From positions 1,354 through 65,353 of IMG/VR virus record IMGVR_UViG_3300033141_002949: 64,000 nt of DNA; one strand, written 5' to 3'. Source of the DNA: a virus. Lineage: Duplodnaviria > Caudoviricetes. A model generated the notes under the pieces. That model searched no databases and was not told where the DNA came from. It worked only from the letters and a program-made list of their open reading frames with translations. Made by a program: the position numbers and the translations under genes. This document shows positions 5,026-53,952 of the stretch, in pieces (the first letter of the stretch is position 1; each line of letters begins with the position of its first letter).

Positions 5026-5254
5026 CAACGTCTGCAAGGCCGAAGAAAAACTCGCTCAATTGCTGGAAACCTAACCCTGCGAAGGTATGGCAATCAGCAG
5101 CCAGGGCATCTAGGGATAGATGCGAATGGTTCAGAGACTCACAGCGCAACTAGACCAGTTGCGGTCTGGGATGCCGCGCAAGCGGCATAACACGGCGAGA
5201 CCAGACACTCTGGTAAGGTATAGTCCACGCCACACCGAAAGGGTGGAGCACGTG
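5026..5254 (+). ncRNA. group I self-splicing intron (229 nt, no ORF)
   Basis: P AATTGCTGGAAA (5058), Q AATCAGCAG (5092), R GGTTCAGAGACTCA (5128), S AAGGTATAGTCC (5215); P1 UUCGGU^C pairs with GGCCGAA with a U-G wobble at the splice site; terminal G5254; splicing restores KRLNFG/IAYG in frame. Confidence 0.95.
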
Positions 5255-25024: not shown

Positions 25025-25310
25025 TTTTGTTACCTCCGGTGATACGCTCCAGAAAGTCGTGTACCCAGTTGGAACCCCTCCCCAACAGGATACCCGTAAG
25101 GATCACACCGACGTAGGGGATAGCACTCTCCAACCGCAGGAATTCCGTGAAGAGATCCAGCGAGAAGTTGAACGCCAGCAGTACACCTACCAAAGGGGCC
25201 ACGTACTTCTTATAACGGTCCGCCGGTGTGTCGGTCAGGAAATACTCCGTAAGGCTCTCAGCCAAGAACGCCAAGAGCGTCGTAACCAACGTCGTGTCTA
25301 TAACACTCAT
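25017..25310 (-). CDS. small membrane protein, holin-like
   Basis: Three hydrophobic segments; TGILLGRGSNWVHD; AGGAGG RBS. Confidence 0.65.
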   Translation of the reverse strand: MSVIDTTLVTTLLAFLAESLTEYFLTDTPADRYKKYVAPLVGVLLAFNFSLDLFTEFLRLESAIPYVGVILTGILLGRGSNWVHDFLERITGGNKNA

Positions 25311-25318
25311 TGCTCCTC

Positions 25319-26545
25319 CTAAACGCTAATACCCATCGGCGCATGAAGTTCCCTCGTGACCAGCTGGTAGGCCTCCCACGCGCCATTTTGTGCCCCCCAC
25401 GGGCATATCTGCTGCGCGTATGGAGGGTTGTCGGGGATCATCTGCCAACGCTCCACGAGATTCTGTGGCGGCCCATACGTGTCGAGCGTCTTCGCCACCC
25501 GCGCCGTAGCCAACGCTGCAACCGCTCGCGCCATGCGGGGACTCATCCAGCCGTGAGCGTTCAGGGCTACCCCCGCCTGATAGTGACAACGCACCACGTC
25601 TGGTCGTCCAGGGAGGCTCCCGGCCACCCAAACAGCGTCGTCCTCATCCCACGTGGCCGGAATGACGTGTACGTCGCTCGTCACACCGTCGCGCACCTGC
25701 ATCACTCCACGCCGAGCTGCGTAGTACGTAGGGTCTGTTGTGGCGATGCTTTGACGAAGGAACTCCACAGGGGCGTTGTCCTCTCCCTCCGTGGTCGTCG
25801 TCTCACGATAGACATTCACTGTCTTCAGGTAGTTGTCGGGGTCGTCGCCATCGATCCCGCGCGTAGCACCCTCCTCTGTGCCGTAGTACTCCCACAGGTC
25901 GGGCAGCACGAATTGAGCGCTGTTTCCGCGAATCGTAATGCCCGTTTCGAGCAACGTAAAGCGCAGGAACCGTATACGGTTTTCGCACGACACGTCGTCG
26001 TTGTGGACGACTACGATCTCCCCGGCAGACCAACCGCTCGCGTCTATGTCGGGGATCACAATCTCTGCGGTCTCCTTGAAGCCGTCCCCATCATTGTCAA
26101 TATAGTCTACTGTCACGTCCAACGCGACCTCCTGGACGCGACGACGCCCAGGCGCTTGCAGGTGCCCCCAATTCAAGGTCATTCGCGGATACAGCCTATA
26201 AAAATCCCTGTATCCGGCTGGGATGTCGTGCAGTTGTAGCAAACCAACCTCAGGCAGCCCCGTCGCCCGTGGGAACTGATGTACCTCGTTCGTGATCCAT
26301 ACGGGGGCGGGCCAATATCTCAACCTTTCGGCGATGGTCTGTTCCGCCTCTGCGATGGCCACGGCCAGCTCTTCACGGGAGGCCTTGCCGCTGGCCATCC
26401 AACCGTGCTGGTACCACAACGTAGACACATCCCGTTTAGGCGGGAACTGCGCACAGATGACCGAGTTGAAATGTCTCGGCTCTTGGCCGGTGATGAACGC
26501 ATATTGATCCAGACTCAGGAGTGTCGGGGTGCTCGCTTTAGCCAT
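25319..26545 (-). CDS. head-tail adaptor-like virion protein
   Basis: AIAEAEQTIAERL..P and YQAG motifs; position between head and tail genes. Confidence 0.6.
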   Translation of the reverse strand: MAKASTPTLLSLDQYAFITGQEPRHFNSVICAQFPPKRDVSTLWYQHGWMASGKASREELAVAIAEAEQTIAERLRYWPAPVWITNEVHQFPRATGLPEVGLLQLHDIPAGYRDFYRLYPRMTLNWGHLQAPGRRRVQEVALDVTVDYIDNDGDGFKETAEIVIPDIDASGWSAGEIVVVHNDDVSCENRIRFLRFTLLETGITIRGNSAQFVLPDLWEYYGTEEGATRGIDGDDPDNYLKTVNVYRETTTTEGEDNAPVEFLRQSIATTDPTYYAARRGVMQVRDGVTSDVHVIPATWDEDDAVWVAGSLPGRPDVVRCHYQAGVALNAHGWMSPRMARAVAALATARVAKTLDTYGPPQNLVERWQMIPDNPPYAQQICPWGAQNGAWEAYQLVTRELHAPMGISV

Positions 26546-29181
26546 CAGCGCTCCTCTACGGGGACGACCCTGAAGATGCCCGGCCATCGCCTCAGGAAGA
26601 AGTCCACGTCCTTAGACTTAACGTACTGCCTCGAATCCTTGCCTTCTCCAAAGTGGTATCTGCCGCCGCCCGGCACGCGGAGGACTCTGTGCCCAGAAAT
26701 CCCAGAGGACATCTCCAACAGCACGCCTCTATCCTTGACATCATTGGGCTGCGTTTGCAACACTGTAGGTCGCTTCACTTGCAGGATACCATTAGAGGCC
26801 CCTGACGCGCATCGACTGCAACTGCGTCTGGGTTTGGGAACCGCCGATGCGTACCTGGCTTTGATCCTCTCCAAAAGCTCGTCCTCTCGCTCCAGACTTG
26901 CCTCGCGGCGCAGCCCTGTATCGTAGCAGTACACGAACAGCGGCTTCGGAACGCGGACGCCTTTGTACCCCTCCAGGCCCAGACGGATCATATAGTCCCA
27001 ATCTTCCCACAAAGGGAGCGTTTCGTCAAAACCGCCAACCGTCTTCCAGGCCGCCTTAGGATGCACGTTGGTCACGGCAAAGAGCGCGTACTCCAACAAA
27101 CGGGACAGGTTCCAGTTCTTCGCCTGATGTTCCTTGCCCTCGGGACTCGAAATCCAATCCGTGTACACGATGACGGAATCCGTCTCGCAGTTCTCGGTGA
27201 TCTCCAAGGTGGCCTTGAAGTAGTCCCTCAGGAGATAGTCGTCGGCGTCCAGAAAGCACAGGAACCGCCCACGCGCGATCTCCGCCCCTACATTGCGCGC
27301 TGCGGAGACGTTTCCTGGGTGTGGATTCTCCAACCAACGCACCCAGGGGTACACCTGCTCGTAAGGTATCGCGCCCCCTTGCTGGCGCAGAGGGACGATC
27401 TCCTGCGTATCGTCCACGACAATGAGCTCCCATCGCGGGTCCGTCTGCGCCGCCACAGACTCTATGGCTTTGCGGACGTGCTCTACATGGCGCGGGCCTA
27501 CGGGGATGACCACCGAGACCATCGGCTCGTCGTAAGGGTAGACAGGATGCGAGATATGCTTCGGCGGCACACGGGAGGCAATGGGCTGCGACCCCCCGTT
27601 GGCCCCCGGGAGCCAAAAGGACCAGTCTGGCTCCTTCCCTGCGCCACGAACCTTGCTGGTCGCGCTCTTATCGTGCATCCGATAGACATACACCGGCTCC
27701 TCGGTGACTTGCGCGATGTCGTAGCCGGCGAGGGTCAGGCGCGTCCACAGCTCCGCGTCCTCTGCCGGAGCCAACAGTTGTCTGAAGCCCCCTGTACGGA
27801 GGAAAGCCTCTCGACGCATCATGTTGAAGCTGGGCACGCAGTTCTGACGATTCACCTGCTTCGACGCATCGAAAGCGCCCGGCCAGGCGCCCACGCTTGT
27901 GGTCTTAGCCTCCGCGTCGGTCAGATACAGCTTTCCGTAGGCCAGCCCCAGACGACGATCCGCAAGCATCGGCTTCAGCAGTCGCCTCAACGCGCCAGGC
28001 ATCAGGAAATCATCCGCGTCGAGGAAGCATATGAATGGAGCCTCAGACGCCATTGCGCCGGCGTTGCGTGTGTCGGCGACGCCTGTGTTCGCTTTGTCGA
28101 TTACACGACAGCGGGGGTCGTCGCCTATGGCCTCGCGGATGACCTCCAGAGAGCCATCCGTCGAGCCGTCGTTGACTACGATCAGTTCCCAATCGACGCC
28201 TTTCTGCTCTTTGACACTCTCAATAGCCCTGCCCACGTACTGTTCGTAATTATAACACGGAATGATAACCGAGACCTGCGCCTGCGACTCCTCCCGTTTG
28301 GCAGCTAAAGCGGCGTTGTACACCGTGCGATACGCACGCGCAGCGTTCTTCCAGGTGTACGACAGCGCCCTCTCTCGTGCGGCCTTGCTCAAGCGTTCGT
28401 AGTTGTCCAGAATATAGTGCAGGCCCTCCCGCTCAGCGTCCAGATCGTAGGGATCAACCAGATATCCCTCAACGTCGTGCCGCACGATGTCCGGCGTCGC
28501 CCCCCACTTCCAACCGAGCACAGGGAGACCGGCGGCCATCGCCTCCAACGTCCCGATGCCAAACGTCTCCTTGGTGGACGAATAGTAGATGCCACACCTG
28601 TAGATGACCTCCCGCATTCGTTGTATAGGCTGGAGGCCGATGACCGTGACGTTGCGGGCTTCTTCGCCAAAGGTGGTCACGAACCGAAAATCTGGACACG
28701 CCTCCGCGAGTCGGTTTACGGGCTTGGGGTTGCATACGTCTGTATCGCGGTTCTTGTTCCACAGGACGATAGCGCGCACCTCTCGCGGTCCCGGTGCAGG
28801 CCACTCCCGCATGTCTATCCCATGCGGGACGACATGCGGCCAGAAGCCTAGGTCGCGGGCGAAGATCTCCCCGACCCACCGGCTGGGCACGGTCACGGCG
28901 TATGCCGAACGCACCGCGTCTATGACGCGCGCGTTCACCTCCCACGCCCAGGAACCCATAGACAACGACGCCGTAGGGTACAGCCCGTGACAATGCACCA
29001 CATCAACCGGATCGCCGTTAGGCGAACAGATGTGGACGGCTCGCAAATGCGCATCATCGCGGTCGGAGGTCAACTCGACGCCTACCGCTGGCAGTGTGCG
29101 GTGCATGTAATACACAGCAACGTCGAGACCGCTGTTGAGGCGCTCTACAGGTTTTGGATTTGGATGCAACCAAACTCTCAT
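26545..29181 (-). CDS. multidomain glycosyltransferase (GT4 + GT2 + GT2)
   Basis: ETFGIGTLEAMAAGLP (GT4); two VSV[IV]IP..., VV[ND]D, RNxGA, FLDADD, EDx[ED] sets (GT2). Confidence 0.92.
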   Translation of the reverse strand: MRVWLHPNPKPVERLNSGLDVAVYYMHRTLPAVGVELTSDRDDAHLRAVHICSPNGDPVDVVHCHGLYPTASLSMGSWAWEVNARVIDAVRSAYAVTVPSRWVGEIFARDLGFWPHVVPHGIDMREWPAPGPREVRAIVLWNKNRDTDVCNPKPVNRLAEACPDFRFVTTFGEEARNVTVIGLQPIQRMREVIYRCGIYYSSTKETFGIGTLEAMAAGLPVLGWKWGATPDIVRHDVEGYLVDPYDLDAEREGLHYILDNYERLSKAARERALSYTWKNAARAYRTVYNAALAAKREESQAQVSVIIPCYNYEQYVGRAIESVKEQKGVDWELIVVNDGSTDGSLEVIREAIGDDPRCRVIDKANTGVADTRNAGAMASEAPFICFLDADDFLMPGALRRLLKPMLADRRLGLAYGKLYLTDAEAKTTSVGAWPGAFDASKQVNRQNCVPSFNMMRREAFLRTGGFRQLLAPAEDAELWTRLTLAGYDIAQVTEEPVYVYRMHDKSATSKVRGAGKEPDWSFWLPGANGGSQPIASRVPPKHISHPVYPYDEPMVSVVIPVGPRHVEHVRKAIESVAAQTDPRWELIVVDDTQEIVPLRQQGGAIPYEQVYPWVRWLENPHPGNVSAARNVGAEIARGRFLCFLDADDYLLRDYFKATLEITENCETDSVIVYTDWISSPEGKEHQAKNWNLSRLLEYALFAVTNVHPKAAWKTVGGFDETLPLWEDWDYMIRLGLEGYKGVRVPKPLFVYCYDTGLRREASLEREDELLERIKARYASAVPKPRRSCSRCASGASNGILQVKRPTVLQTQPNDVKDRGVLLEMSSGISGHRVLRVPGGGRYHFGEGKDSRQYVKSKDVDFFLRRWPGIFRVVPVEER

Positions 29182-29406
29182 AGAAAATCGGTGCAGGAAA
29201 CTGTCGTCTTTAGACGATAGAGGAACGCACCTTCCTCCTTCCTTGACTCAATGGCGCTTGGCTTGACAAGCCGTGTCTCTTCTGCCGCACTGCCCGTATC
29301 CTGTACACAAGTCCACACTTTGAGGCCAACCCAACCCCAGTAGGGGTGGGGTACAGACCCGAAAACTGGAAGGGCAAGCCGCCTGCTTTATCTGGCGGTA
29401 GTTGAC
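29182..29406 (+). mobile_element. non-autonomous IS200/IS605-type miniature element (225 bp)
   Basis: Follows TCAT; left hairpin CTGTCGTC-TTTA-GACGATAG; right end GCAAGCCGCCTGCTTTATCTGGCGGTAGTTGAC; removing it restores an AAA-TGA/ATG overlap; left end is 57/63 identical to 53372-53434. Confidence 0.8.
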
Positions 29407-29981
29407 TTCCTGGCACTGCGTGACCGCCTTCTACGGGTGTATTTCAAACGCCTCCAGGCCAGAATGTTCGAGTCGATAACGTGCGGCTCGCCCAATGTAG
29501 CCGTTTCGTAGCCCCACTGCTGGAAATCGTCTGGCATGAGCGCCGAACGGTGCGCTTCGTAGGGGTTTCCATGCACTGTCCCCTGTGGATAGCGCCCCCA
29601 CGGAGACCCCAAAATGACAACGCGACGAGTAATGCGCTCCAAACGCCACAGGGCATCCGGGATATCCTCGTAGTCAAGGTGCTCCGGCCCGTGCCACCAC
29701 ACGGTGTAGTCGAACATATGATGGCCCAGCACCAGACGATCCGCCTCACGGACATCCCCACATACGATGTTGTGGATCATCTCCTTGTGCTTTATCTCGT
29801 CGATGTATGGAGGCCAAATCTCCAACACAGTAAGGCGGTTGCCGGCTCGATATAGATCGATGCCGTAATGGAAGCGGTCCTTATTCGCCCCCACGTACAA
29901 AAGATCGCCAGGCTCCTCTATCAGCTCGGGCACTCGATCTATGATTTGCGGCCAACGCGCCAGGATGAGCGGTGTAGCCAC
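29388..29981 (-). CDS. SAM-dependent methyltransferase-like protein
   Basis: LLYVGA, VLEIW, GDVR, FDY...PEHL; last five codons are supplied by the inserted element. Confidence 0.75.
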   Translation of the reverse strand: MATPLILARWPQIIDRVPELIEEPGDLLYVGANKDRFHYGIDLYRAGNRLTVLEIWPPYIDEIKHKEMIHNIVCGDVREADRLVLGHHMFDYTVWWHGPEHLDYEDIPDALWRLERITRRVVILGSPWGRYPQGTVHGNPYEAHRSALMPDDFQQWGYETATLGEPHVIDSNILAWRRLKYTRRRRSRSARKSTTAR

Positions 29982-40087: not shown

Positions 40088-40589
40088 CGTCGTCTACGAT
40101 CTCGGTGAGGATTTCGATCAGCTCAAGTTGGTCGGATTGGTCGGATTGGTCGGATTGAGCGGGTAGAGCGGGCTGGCTGGGTTGAGCGGGTAGGGCGGGT
40201 TGGCTGGATTGAGCGGGCTGGGCGGGGAGGGCGGGCGTGATGTAAACGACTAGCTGATCCGTGTCCAGGCGGTGACCCACATCAATGTCCAGGCGGTCGG
40301 AGTAGACGCCCAGGGCTTGTAGGGCGAGCTTGATGGCCGAGACTTGGCCGGTTTCGGCTTTCCTGGCCAGGGCGCGCATGATCTGGGGCAGGCGTTTGCC
40401 GATCTCGGCGCGCGCGCGGATGAACGCACCATCCCAGAAGCCGGGAAGGTGCTCCCAGGCGTACAGTTGGGCCTTCGTCACCCCGAACTTGGCGCAGAAC
40501 TCGTCGTGAGTCTTGAGTTTTGGCGGACGGTCGTCTGGGTGCGTGGCCAACCAGAACTGGTATTTCTGCTGGACGACTGTTAGGGCCAT
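40059..40589 (-). CDS. terS: terminase small subunit (HTH) with low-complexity repeat tail
   Basis: Upstream of TerL; HTH-like FCAKFGVTKAQLYAW; GQVSAIKL; PALPAQ/SDQ repeats. Confidence 0.7.
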   Translation of the reverse strand: MALTVVQQKYQFWLATHPDDRPPKLKTHDEFCAKFGVTKAQLYAWEHLPGFWDGAFIRARAEIGKRLPQIMRALARKAETGQVSAIKLALQALGVYSDRLDIDVGHRLDTDQLVVYITPALPAQPAQSSQPALPAQPSQPALPAQSDQSDQSDQLELIEILTEIVDDDGEADLHTK

Positions 40590-40630: not shown

Positions 40631-40705
40631 AAATTTGTAGGGGTAAGTGTCTATAAAATTTTGTAGGGGTAAGTGTCTATAAAATTTTGTAGGGGTAAGT
40701 ATCTA
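40631..40705. repeat. three tandem 26-bp repeats
   Basis: AAAATTTTGTAGGGGTAAGTGTCTAT at 40655, with variant copies at 40631 and 40681. Confidence 0.9.
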
Positions 40706-40986
40706 GCGACGTGGGGGGAGATAAGAATCTCTCTCCGCTTGACATAACGTCACCTAACAGACTCGAAAGCGCCGCGCGCACGCCAAAAAACTGGCAAGCA
40801 ATACAAACGTTATGTCTAGTAAGGCTGTGGTACACTGTGAGCGCCCATAGGGGCCGCGACGAACGCGACGCGACGCACACACATGCGCGCGCGTGCACGC
40901 GCGCGCGCAAGCGTCGCTTGAGATATATAGTCACTCGCTCGCGCGCATACGCGCGCGCGGGCACACGCACACACGGAGGTTATGTC

Positions 40987-41290: not shown

Positions 41291-41977
41291 ATGACGACTC
41301 AAGTGACTATCTCGGCTGATCAGATTGCGCGGCGCCATGATTTTTTGCGCGGCGCGCAAACGTCTATATCGCGCGCCGTGCGTGTGTTAGGCGACGAGTT
41401 GGATATGGCCTTCACGACGCTGATCGAGAGCGACGCGCGCATCTTAGCGCGCGCGGATAGTGACGCGCGGGCGGCACAAGCGCCCGCGCCAAAGTCCGCG
41501 CCCGAGCCAAAGTCCGCGCCCGAGCCAAAGTCCGCGCCCGAGCCAAAGTCCGCGCCCGAGCCAAAGTCCGCGCCCGCCGCCGCCGACGACACGGCGGCGG
41601 ACGTATGTCCGTGCGGTTCGAACCGCGCGGATTGGCCAACGGCCGCGCAATATTGTCCCTATTGCGGCCGGCCGCGTGACGCGCAAATACCGCCGGAAAG
41701 GACCGCCGCGCAAAACTGGAAGGCCACATGGGAGAGCAATGGAACCTTGAGCCTACACGTCGACATGTCGCGCGGTAAAACGCGCGTAACAGACGCCTTC
41801 GGCGGGCCGGCCCGCCGAGGGAGCGCTTTCCTGGCCACTACGGGCCGCCGAACGCAAACCAAGCGTGGTAAAACCTACTACGCTGAAGTATCCGTGCCGG
41901 CGGAGTTGCGAAGCACGGTTGGCGTCGGAACGGTCAAGGTCCGGCTGCAGGTGATCGCACCGGACTTGCTGGACTAG
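41291..41977 (+). CDS. hypothetical protein with KSAPEP repeats and Zn ribbon
   Basis: AGGAGG RBS; CPCG..YCPYCG; followed by a terminator. Confidence 0.7.
   Translation: MTTQVTISADQIARRHDFLRGAQTSISRAVRVLGDELDMAFTTLIESDARILARADSDARAAQAPAPKSAPEPKSAPEPKSAPEPKSAPEPKSAPAAADDTAADVCPCGSNRADWPTAAQYCPYCGRPRDAQIPPERTAAQNWKATWESNGTLSLHVDMSRGKTRVTDAFGGPARRGSAFLATTGRRTQTKRGKTYYAEVSVPAELRSTVGVGTVKVRLQVIAPDLLD
41480..41576 (+). repeat. five tandem 18-bp repeats
   Basis: CCAAAGTCCGCGCCCGAG units at 41489, 41507, 41525, 41543 and 41561. Confidence 0.95.
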
Positions 41978-45339: not shown

Positions 45340-45790
45340 GACTTCCCAAAGAACTTTCCGCTTTCACAGAAAGTTCTGCCGCTTTCACACAATATGCCTC
45401 TCTGCGCTTGCCATATTATCATACACTCAAAAGCAAAAAACAGAAAACTATCTATATCTTTTCTACACTTTTGGCAGATAAACCTGCTTTTCTACACTTT
45501 GTGAAATGACCCCCCTTCTATAAGAACTTTATATATATATATATATATAAGCGGATAATGACTTTCCGCTTCTCTCTTAAAAACTTCTTCTTTTCTGCCC
45601 CTACCCCCCTCCGCGCCAGGGTGTAGAAAAGCGAGTTTATCTGCCAAAAGTGTAGAAAACCTCGCGGTCTTTTCCGGTTGACTCCAGTATATGCCATGAT
45701 AAACTGGCAGCAAAATGCATCTAAATTTTCATTTGCTGCCACTTTCACAAAAAGTTCTTCCAGTTTCACAACTGTTTTTTCCACTTCCCT
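45340..45790. other. AT-rich non-coding region, candidate replication origin
   Basis: 39-bp inverted repeat (45459-45497 / 45621-45659) flanking a (TA)n run; further CTTTCACA.AAAGTTCT direct repeats. Confidence 0.55.
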
Positions 45791-52886: not shown

Positions 52887-53402
52887 ATGAACGAAGGTGT
52901 AGTCATAGTCGTTCACGACGGGCGCGTCGAGCGCGTACACATGGACAGCCAAAGTCCCGTAGTCGTCGTAGACCTCGACGACGCGGCTTTCGGGGACAAC
53001 TACGTGTACGAGCCACAGGTTCAGTCGTTGGAAAGTCTTTGCACGAAATACCGCTTGGCCGTCAACAGGTACTTTTTCCTGTCTGGGGACGACGTGAAGA
53101 TTTCCGATGAGGTACGCGCTCTCATGAATGTGTACTCTCACGTGACGACAAAACCTGTCGAATACGATCTGGACGACTGGTACACGATTGTAGACTGGCT
53201 CGTTTGGTCCAAGCTGAAAGAGATGGTGGGAGAGGATGAAGAAACGCAACTGGATACGTTGGCGTTTATTGCCAAGGCGTTGCAGGATATGCGCTGGCTT
53301 GCGGAGCATGGCGCGCGGCTGAAAGAGAAGAGGCGGGAGAAGCTATGGTCACGACCTGACGACTGTGGAGAAAGGAGGAAGGTGCATTCCCCTGTCGCCT
53401 AA
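52887..53402 (+). CDS. hypothetical protein
   Basis: AGGAGGT RBS; stop codon lies in the IS-end hairpin. Confidence 0.65.
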   Translation: MNEGVVIVVHDGRVERVHMDSQSPVVVVDLDDAAFGDNYVYEPQVQSLESLCTKYRLAVNRYFFLSGDDVKISDEVRALMNVYSHVTTKPVEYDLDDWYTIVDWLVWSKLKEMVGEDEETQLDTLAFIAKALQDMRWLAEHGARLKEKRREKLWSRPDDCGERRKVHSPVA

Positions 53403-53430
53403 AGACGGCGGTTTCCTGCACCGATTTTCT
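53372..53430 (-). mobile_element. orphan left end of the same IS200/IS605-type element
   Basis: 57/63 identity (counting the flanking ATGA) with 29240-29178; again abuts ATGA. Confidence 0.75.
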
Positions 53431-53952
53431 ATGAAAGTTGATGCCGCGATATGGTCCGCTGAGAGGGCACTGGAGGCGCGCGGCTATCGTATAATGCCTA
53501 TTGACCCTGTGGACCCCTCACTGTGGGCCTACACACGTTATGACCGACGGCACGTCTACGTGCGTCCCGACCTGTCGGAGCGCGAGACCCTTCTGGCCTT
53601 ACTACACGAGATGGGGCACGTAGAGTTGCACGCGGGCACAGACAGAAGCAAGATTGCGACGTACCTTCGAGATGTGGAGGCGGAACTGACGGCGATGCGT
53701 ATGCTGCGCCTGTTACGTCAAACGTCCAACGGCATCTCGATGGACTATCTCAAAAACGAAACCGCCGGCCATGGAGACGTTCTCTCCATCGTGCTGACGT
53801 TGGACGCCGACCGTTTGGAGCGAGCTGCCGCGCGTCTGGTAGGTGGGATGTGGGCCTGCTATCTGCCCAGGATGCTTTGGGAGCAGTTGACAAGAAGCCG
53901 AAAGTATGCTACACTTTCTTTAGTGGACAGTGGTCAGGAGGAGGAGGCATAA
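53431..53952 (+). CDS. ImmA/IrrE-like zinc metallopeptidase
   Basis: LLHEMGHVELH...VEAE. Confidence 0.75.
   Translation: MKVDAAIWSAERALEARGYRIMPIDPVDPSLWAYTRYDRRHVYVRPDLSERETLLALLHEMGHVELHAGTDRSKIATYLRDVEAELTAMRMLRLLRQTSNGISMDYLKNETAGHGDVLSIVLTLDADRLERAAARLVGGMWACYLPRMLWEQLTRSRKYATLSLVDSGQEEEA
53887..53915 (+). promoter_or_regulatory. sigma70-type promoter
   Basis: TTGACA-17 bp-TACACT with extended TG. Confidence 0.7.

Follow-up and report, generated by a model that had tools for sequence, protein, structure and literature searches.

Why are two putative sugar-modification genes of a phage late operon, whose counterparts in related phages appear to be translationally coupled or nearly so, parted by 206 noncoding nucleotides (nt), and how might the second of them be translated? 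The question is raised by the virus record IMGVR_UViG_3300033141_002949 of an uncultivated phage (Duplodnaviria; Caudoviricetes), which is 65,353 bp long and has direct terminal repeats. We analysed a stretch of 64,000 nt, bases 1354-65353 of this record, which we call the window. The junction sits in a minus-strand late operon, between a gene for a 197-aa protein with a predicted methyltransferase fold and a gene for an 878-aa multidomain glycosyltransferase. An initial annotation of the letters of the window described it as a 225-bp miniature IS200/IS605-type element, devoid of open reading frames (ORFs) and inserted exactly at an ATGA stop/start overlap. We hold, with somewhat better than even confidence, a different interpretation: a lineage-specific noncoding intercistronic spacer whose end next to the start codon is a structured translation-initiation leader used at two sites in the phage.

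A noncoding spacer that appears specific to one lineage

The spacer (29182-29387, minus strand) has no coding signal and is missing in syntenic relatives. Its log-likelihood per codon is −0.17, −0.19 and −0.04 in the three frames, to be compared with an in-frame mean of 0.33 and a 5th percentile of 0.14 among the real genes of the phage; it is thus noncoding in every frame. Both genes around it remain intact, as had been proposed. The upstream ORF (29388-29981, minus strand) ends with a TAA stop at 29390-29388, and the glycosyltransferase gene (26545-29181, minus strand) starts with an ATG at 29181-29179 and encodes an N-terminus that aligns from residue 1-3 with the proteins of relatives.

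Homologues of the 197-aa gene were found in 57 viral loci, three of which (L005, L006 and L011) keep the same three-gene order: upstream gene, methyltransferase, long glycosyltransferase. L005 and L006 are identical at the junction, which leaves two independent syntenic lineages (n = 2). In L011, one base separates the methyltransferase stop from the glycosyltransferase ATG, and in L005 the two genes are separated by a 26-nt spacer containing GGAGGG. Because these two relatives have spacers of 1 nt and 26 nt, the comparison supports the view that the spacer is extra, derived DNA specific to the window's lineage. The three methyltransferases have diverged to a similar degree (61% and 59% pairwise identity between the relatives and the window, 55% between the two relatives), and a single gain in the window's lineage would therefore be the simplest history. 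Across the wider family, the next gene begins within 60 nt in 46 of 54 loci, according to a crude ORF-based count for which three of the 57 loci gave no value.

The syntenic relatives are distant, and hence are not empty alleles in the strict sense. We found no closer relative with an empty allele in the 'phages' collection, no closer relative among viral contigs queried with the 197-aa and 878-aa proteins and with the two proteins encoded around the second leader copy described below (173 and 171 aa), and none in metagenome contigs queried with the 197-aa protein (27 pattern matches, none confirmed). A complete relative, G001, lacks the leader and also the M78-like gene found after the leader's second copy. 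The earlier description of the segment as inserted DNA thus agrees with the syntenic relatives, in which it is missing; an empty allele in the strict sense was not found.

The leader recurs before a second gene

Only the start-codon-proximal 59-71 nt of the spacer recur, with one further copy in the phage. Copy A (29173-29243, minus strand; 59-nt core at 29182-29240) precedes the glycosyltransferase gene. Copy B (53369-53439, plus strand) precedes a gene for a 173-aa M78-like metallopeptidase (53431-53952, ATG at 53431), with its core, at 53372-53430, directly before the start codon and in the orientation of the gene. The two 71-nt stretches are 89% identical (E 1.6e-21) and lie on opposite strands, each sharing the sense strand of its downstream gene; within the core, 53 of the 59 positions are identical. 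The similarity spans AAGGAGG through ATGA to AGTT and ends sharply at both sides, and its extent is that of a translation-initiation region. All eight differences between the copies are transitions. The longest perfectly conserved run, of 24 nt, falls between the hairpin and the start codon, and the two sites share nothing outside the leader.

In copy A, AAGGAGG is followed by a 42-nt stem-loop closed by GGUGCG and UGCACC, then by GAUUUUCU, the AUG at 29181-29179 and the first glycosyltransferase codons; the inner hairpin has a UAAA loop. The first 31 nt of copy B are also the last codons and the stop of a 171-aa gene (52887-53402), whose TAA (53400-53402) falls in the hairpin loop. The 173-aa product of the gene downstream of copy B matches Pfam Peptidase_M78 (E 1.6e-4, just under the curated cut-off) and the metallo-protease family phrog_87 (E 2e-7).

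Two explanations based on translation through the region upstream of copy A were set aside. A 68-codon open frame (29416-29210) that ends at the loop TAA might have been a coding remnant; it carries no coding signal and does not significantly resemble the 171-aa product of the gene before copy B. Programmed bypass across the hairpin, in the manner of T4 gene 60, was discounted, since the frame preceding copy A is noncoding.

Copies in other genomes, which the initial annotation had envisaged, were sought in viral, metagenome and genome collections, and no related copy was found. A covariance model of the leader, run over 596 kb (the window and 58 loci), recovered its two input copies; beyond these it gave three weak matches (E 0.8-5.6). 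In the viral collection, an exact 23-mer had no match and a gapped pattern had three, all within unrelated coding sequence; an exact 21-mer had no match in the metagenome collection. A 20-mer matched once in the genome collection (596 Gb), in a metagenome-assembled genome of Acidobacteria with nothing alike beyond the 20 bases, which we estimate to be about the chance expectation. These collection scans rest on exact words, and diverged copies could be missed. We found neither tRNAs nor known RNA families.

The two copies are inverted relative to each other and 24,125 nt apart. Homologous recombination between them would invert a segment with head genes, the divergent control region and early genes.

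A putative split ribosome-binding site

The initial annotation had pointed to an AAGGAGG lying upstream of the ATG across a hairpin. This is indeed the sole Shine-Dalgarno sequence of the leader, and the distance from its GGAGG to the AUG is 52 nt in both copies. No GGAG, GAGG or AGGA occurs within 20 nt of either AUG (glycosyltransferase or peptidase). Most well-supported genes of the phage have GGAGG-type sites at normal distance. We inspected nine other genes that have no nearby Shine-Dalgarno sequence for a distant site with a bridging stem, and found no second example.

In folds constrained to leave the Shine-Dalgarno sequence and the AUG region unpaired, as they would be on a ribosome, both copies form the same 42-nt closed stem-loop (−16.2 and −17.7 kcal/mol). 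In this structure GGUGCR pairs with UGCACC, and AA plus GAUUUUCU (2 + 8 = 10 nt) remain between GGAGG and AUG. With the Shine-Dalgarno sequence free in this way, 39 of 40 cells pair. Of the eight differences between the copies, four preserve pairing via a G-U or A-U change, one disrupts a pair and three fall at unpaired positions. The 59-71-nt leader may thus be a split, or 'accommodated', ribosome-binding site, in which the folded stem-loop would cut the spacing from 52 nt to 10 nt and translation would presumably proceed through the folded leader. In the lowest-energy fold the Shine-Dalgarno sequence pairs with UUCCYCU, and the leader may therefore double as an on/off switch.

Among known mechanisms, the nearest analogue is the split ribosome-binding site of phage T4. 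According to the part of PMC3014915 available to us, intervening RNA structure shortens a 22-nt spacing to 5 nt in gene 38 and a 27-nt spacing to 11 nt in gene 25. The likeness would lie in a strong Shine-Dalgarno sequence that is too far from the AUG and is bridged by RNA structure (here a predicted change from 52 to 10 nt), and in the position of the site at an intercistronic junction of a phage late or structural gene cluster (PMC3014915, same part). The present leader differs from the T4 sites in the make-up and length of its structure, which contains an inner hairpin and, at 42 nt, is roughly double the T4 size, in being duplicated before two unrelated genes, and in having a more stable alternative fold that hides the Shine-Dalgarno sequence, as known here from predicted folds. 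If the split-site interpretation is true, 52 nt would be among the longest bridged spacings proposed, and a single phage would have duplicated one leader in front of two genes with no relation to each other, a case relevant to the rewiring of expression in tightly coupled operons. The point is a modest one, since the principle is known from T4.

The distal part of the spacer

The 150 nt or so next to the methyltransferase gene hold single-copy hairpins, the first of which wraps the methyltransferase stop and has a short U run after it. The stretch at 29240-29410 (171 nt) is single-copy in the phage. The first structure is a two-tier hairpin recognised from sequence and folding (29360-29410, minus strand), which the initial annotation had taken as the right end of the element. 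It reads GGAAG...CCGCC-AGAUAAAGCA-GGCGG...CUUCC, then AGUUUUCG, with the UAA stop inside AGAUAAAGCA and the U run (AGUUUUC) on its 3' side. It folds better than shuffles on the plus strand (z −3.0, none of 200 shuffles as good); on the minus strand the z score is −1.8, and the consensus terminator scan made no call there. The hairpin is terminator-like but weak, and may be a weak terminator or an RNA-end stabiliser.

Two further features lie between this hairpin and copy A. A G+C-rich hairpin, CCCCACCCC-UACU-GGGGUUGGG (29330-29351, minus strand), is present in the minimum-free-energy folds, and a 13-bp palindrome, GGCTTGTCAAGCC (29260-29272), contains TTGACA on the plus strand and coincides with a plus-strand terminator-like site in the consensus scan. 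That scan called no sigma-70-like promoter on either strand. Folding is no better than that of shuffles for the whole 241-nt region (z −0.99) or for the distal part on the plus (z −0.30) or minus (z 0.01) strand. The distal part may have a terminator or promoter role. The idea that it is a third, degenerate copy of the leader was rejected: 28 of 300 shuffles aligned as well as its best match (20 of 30 nt, ungapped).

Weighing the alternative explanations

Several results weigh against the structured-leader interpretation. The two copies available (n = 2) show no compensatory, two-sided pair changes, and they fold no better than shuffles (z −0.57 and −1.27). In both, the minimum-free-energy fold hides the Shine-Dalgarno sequence, with GGAGGAA paired with UUCCYCU, and is more stable than the open form by 7.5 kcal/mol in copy A and 3.1 kcal/mol in copy B. 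The unpaired probability of the Shine-Dalgarno sequence is at most 0.07 in copy A; in copy B it is at most 0.03 for four of the five GGAGG bases and 0.93 for the central A. The 52-nt split is about twice the length of the documented T4 cases. The consensus scan called no sense-strand terminator and found no promoter. Some features of the locus also recall mobile DNA: TCAT is exactly 19 nt from the foot of the eight-pair hairpin, and another hairpin lies 7 nt from the opposite boundary, an IS608-like geometry; deleting exactly the 59-nt core of copy B also gives an ATGA stop/start overlap (GAATGA), for which the chance is one in three. Since the minimum-free-energy fold masks the Shine-Dalgarno sequence, the leader could equally well be a repressing switch.

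The initial annotation proposed a 225-bp ORF-less IS200/IS605-type (palindrome-associated) element lying 3' of TCAT, which may express an omega-RNA guided by the flanking methyltransferase sequence; such an element would be moved by TnpA acting in trans. The sequence details on which it drew are all present. TCAT (29178-29181) is the reverse complement of the ATGA start of the glycosyltransferase gene; it is followed by AGAAAATC and a hairpin with a TTTA loop that forms eight pairs as plus-strand DNA, including one G-T; GCCGCC-10 nt-GGCGGT-AGTTGAC ends at 29406; and there is no flanking duplication. Together with the extra DNA relative to relatives and the hairpins near the boundaries, this makes a recognisable resemblance to the family, in which subterminal hairpins, the lack of target duplication, an adjoining tetranucleotide and the 19-nt spacing are described in the available part of PMC3201880. 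In IS608, according to that same part, the cleavage tetranucleotide TTAC pairs with AAAG and is 19 nt from the hairpin foot at the left end. ORF-less derivatives of IS200/IS605 that encode guide RNAs exist in bacteria, as reported in the part of PMC10055086 available to us.

The rest of the evidence makes this reading very improbable. Deleting 29182-29406 does give ...RSRSARK-TGA overlapping the ATG, but the same overlap arises at 13 of the 42 boundaries in 29388-29429; as one boundary in three restores it, the 'exact' restoration of ATGA carries little weight. Nothing else fixes the boundary at 29406, and the outer stem GGAAG/CTTCC of the two-tier hairpin straddles it; the 225-bp two-ended unit is without independent support. 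One end does recur beside another TCAT, before another ATGA start, as copies targeted to this motif would, but the right end and the interior are single-copy, neither the covariance model nor the word scans gave a further copy, and the similarity between copies A and B passes the supposed cleavage site, extending 5 nt beyond TCAT into coding sequence (4 of 5 identical). The palindromes at the two ends of an IS200/IS605 element should resemble each other. Here, the left and right ends have no significant likeness (their best local alignment was reached by 28 of 300 shuffles), and the hairpins near the two boundaries differ in stem sequence and loop length (4 nt and 10 nt). The tetranucleotide on the 5' side of the hairpin foot is GAAA, which does not match TCAT under a position rule that was inferred from the TTAC/AAAG pair of IS608 and may differ between family members. 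Y1_Tnp (PF01797), OrfB_IS605 (PF01385) and the TnpB zinc-ribbon (PF07282) had no match at E up to 1 in the 65,353-bp record, a search that did not include IscB-specific domains. The omega-RNA and its guide fared no better: with E values up to 10 allowed, the segment and its flanks gave no Rfam 15 match on either strand, a gathering-score scan of the whole window gave no family at all, and the proposed plus-strand scaffold folds no better than shuffles (z −0.30). Thus, no test made here supports a transposon-derived guide-RNA passenger in this phage.

Mobility of another kind is less improbable, although we still regard it as unlikely. The 59-nt leader, alone or together with the distal 150 nt, could be a small module that inserts at stop/start junctions with its own Shine-Dalgarno sequence and stop codon, or a composite regulatory cassette spread through recombination at short shared sequences, like the PeSL cassettes of T4-like phages. 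The latter are small noncoding stem-loop cassettes between genes that mark points of insertion or replacement, as described in the parts of PMC4122927 and PMC2839356 available to us, the former of which presents them as small composite terminator/promoter sequences acting as exchange points. By analogy, PeSL cassettes and the ORF-less IS200/IS605 derivatives are the closest mobile counterparts of the present locus. Both copies abut a start codon in the orientation of the gene, the insert is missing in relatives (and G001 has neither leader nor M78-like gene), the module gives a stop codon in two of the three frames, and removal of the shared 59 nt of copy B yields the GAATGA overlap. The last point is a frame coincidence of the one-in-three kind, however, and the cassette is known from two copies in a single genome, with none found elsewhere, no terminal repeats, no target duplication and no candidate enzyme. 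A small noncoding stem-loop unit recurring between genes is what the locus shares with PeSL. It differs in that no promoter was detected, that there are two copies and not many, and that the repeat is a translation leader and not a promoter plus terminator; nothing is common to the two sites outside the leader, and hence no exchanged gene block is visible.

Slightly less likely again, in our view, is that the leader is a functional RNA of another kind. It could be repressing, if the helix that hides the Shine-Dalgarno sequence were opened by temperature or by upstream translation, or if the hairpin were the operator of a phage protein that co-regulates both genes. The minimum-free-energy folds of both copies fit such a role. 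No candidate RNA-binding repressor was identified, however, and the region before copy A is not translated, which leaves nothing there to open the helix. The 24-nt perfect run between hairpin and start codon speaks for a functional RNA of one of these other kinds in general. The Shine-Dalgarno sequence could also serve a six-codon mini-ORF that starts with GUG and ends at the loop UAA, with a restart at the AUG 28 nt downstream. Both copies have a GUG after AAGGAGGAAG that shares the frame of the loop UAA, and in copy B this UAA is the real stop of the upstream gene, which would make termination-reinitiation natural there. The GUG is just 3 nt after GGAGG, a spacing shorter than those known to work well, and all four differences within the mini-ORF alter the amino acid, which means that the peptide itself is not conserved. 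Finally, the distant Shine-Dalgarno sequence could be a standby site.

A reading that combines several of these elements is bolder and quite improbable. The 59-nt leader, perhaps with the distal hairpins, would be a miniature mobile phage module that lands on the ATGA junctions of coupled genes and keeps both alive by means of its stop codon and its hairpin-bridged Shine-Dalgarno sequence. It may be moved by an IS200/IS605-like transposase in trans and could give rise to a plus-strand guide RNA against element-free sibling phages.

Neighbouring genes and other repeats in the window

The 197-aa protein upstream of the spacer has no Pfam, PHROG or Protein Data Bank (PDB) sequence match. Its AlphaFold model has a pLDDT of 86.6, with values below 50 at residues 183-197, and the last 15 or so residues are predicted to be disordered. 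The top Foldseek matches of this model are S-adenosylmethionine (SAM)-dependent methyltransferases (E ~2e-8, TM ~0.6), from which a class I SAM-dependent methyltransferase fold is predicted. The label 'methyltransferase' given to the gene initially is thus borne out at the level of the fold. The protein belongs to an unannotated phage family found in at least 57 viral loci, with an invariant WHGPEH motif, and often encoded beside glycosyltransferases. In the 878-aa glycosyltransferase downstream of the spacer, Pfam recognises a GT4 and two GT2 regions.

Further along the minus strand, a 294-nt gap that follows a 422-aa gene is not empty (25025-25309). An ATG at 25309, preceded by AGGAGG, opens an ORF for a small, hydrophobic product (about 90 aa), a possible holin-like membrane protein; a plus-strand ORF overlaps this one. 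The whole-window Rfam scan gave no group I intron at 5026-5254, the proposed intron site in the DNA polymerase gene, where a divergent intron might nevertheless lie.

Repeats other than the leader are also present in the window. Three tandem 26-nt repeats (AATTTTGTAGGGGTAAGTGTCTATAA-like) at 40631-40708, in the intergenic region from which the late and early gene blocks diverge, are candidate operator, promoter or origin repeats. A 39-nt inverted repeat (45459-45497 and 45621-45659), whose arms are 95% complementary and 123 nt apart, lies in a region of lower G+C content (0.53). Tandem arrays with periods of 9 nt and 18 nt, at 40118-40243 and 41462-41594, probably encode repetitive peptides or lie in the control region.

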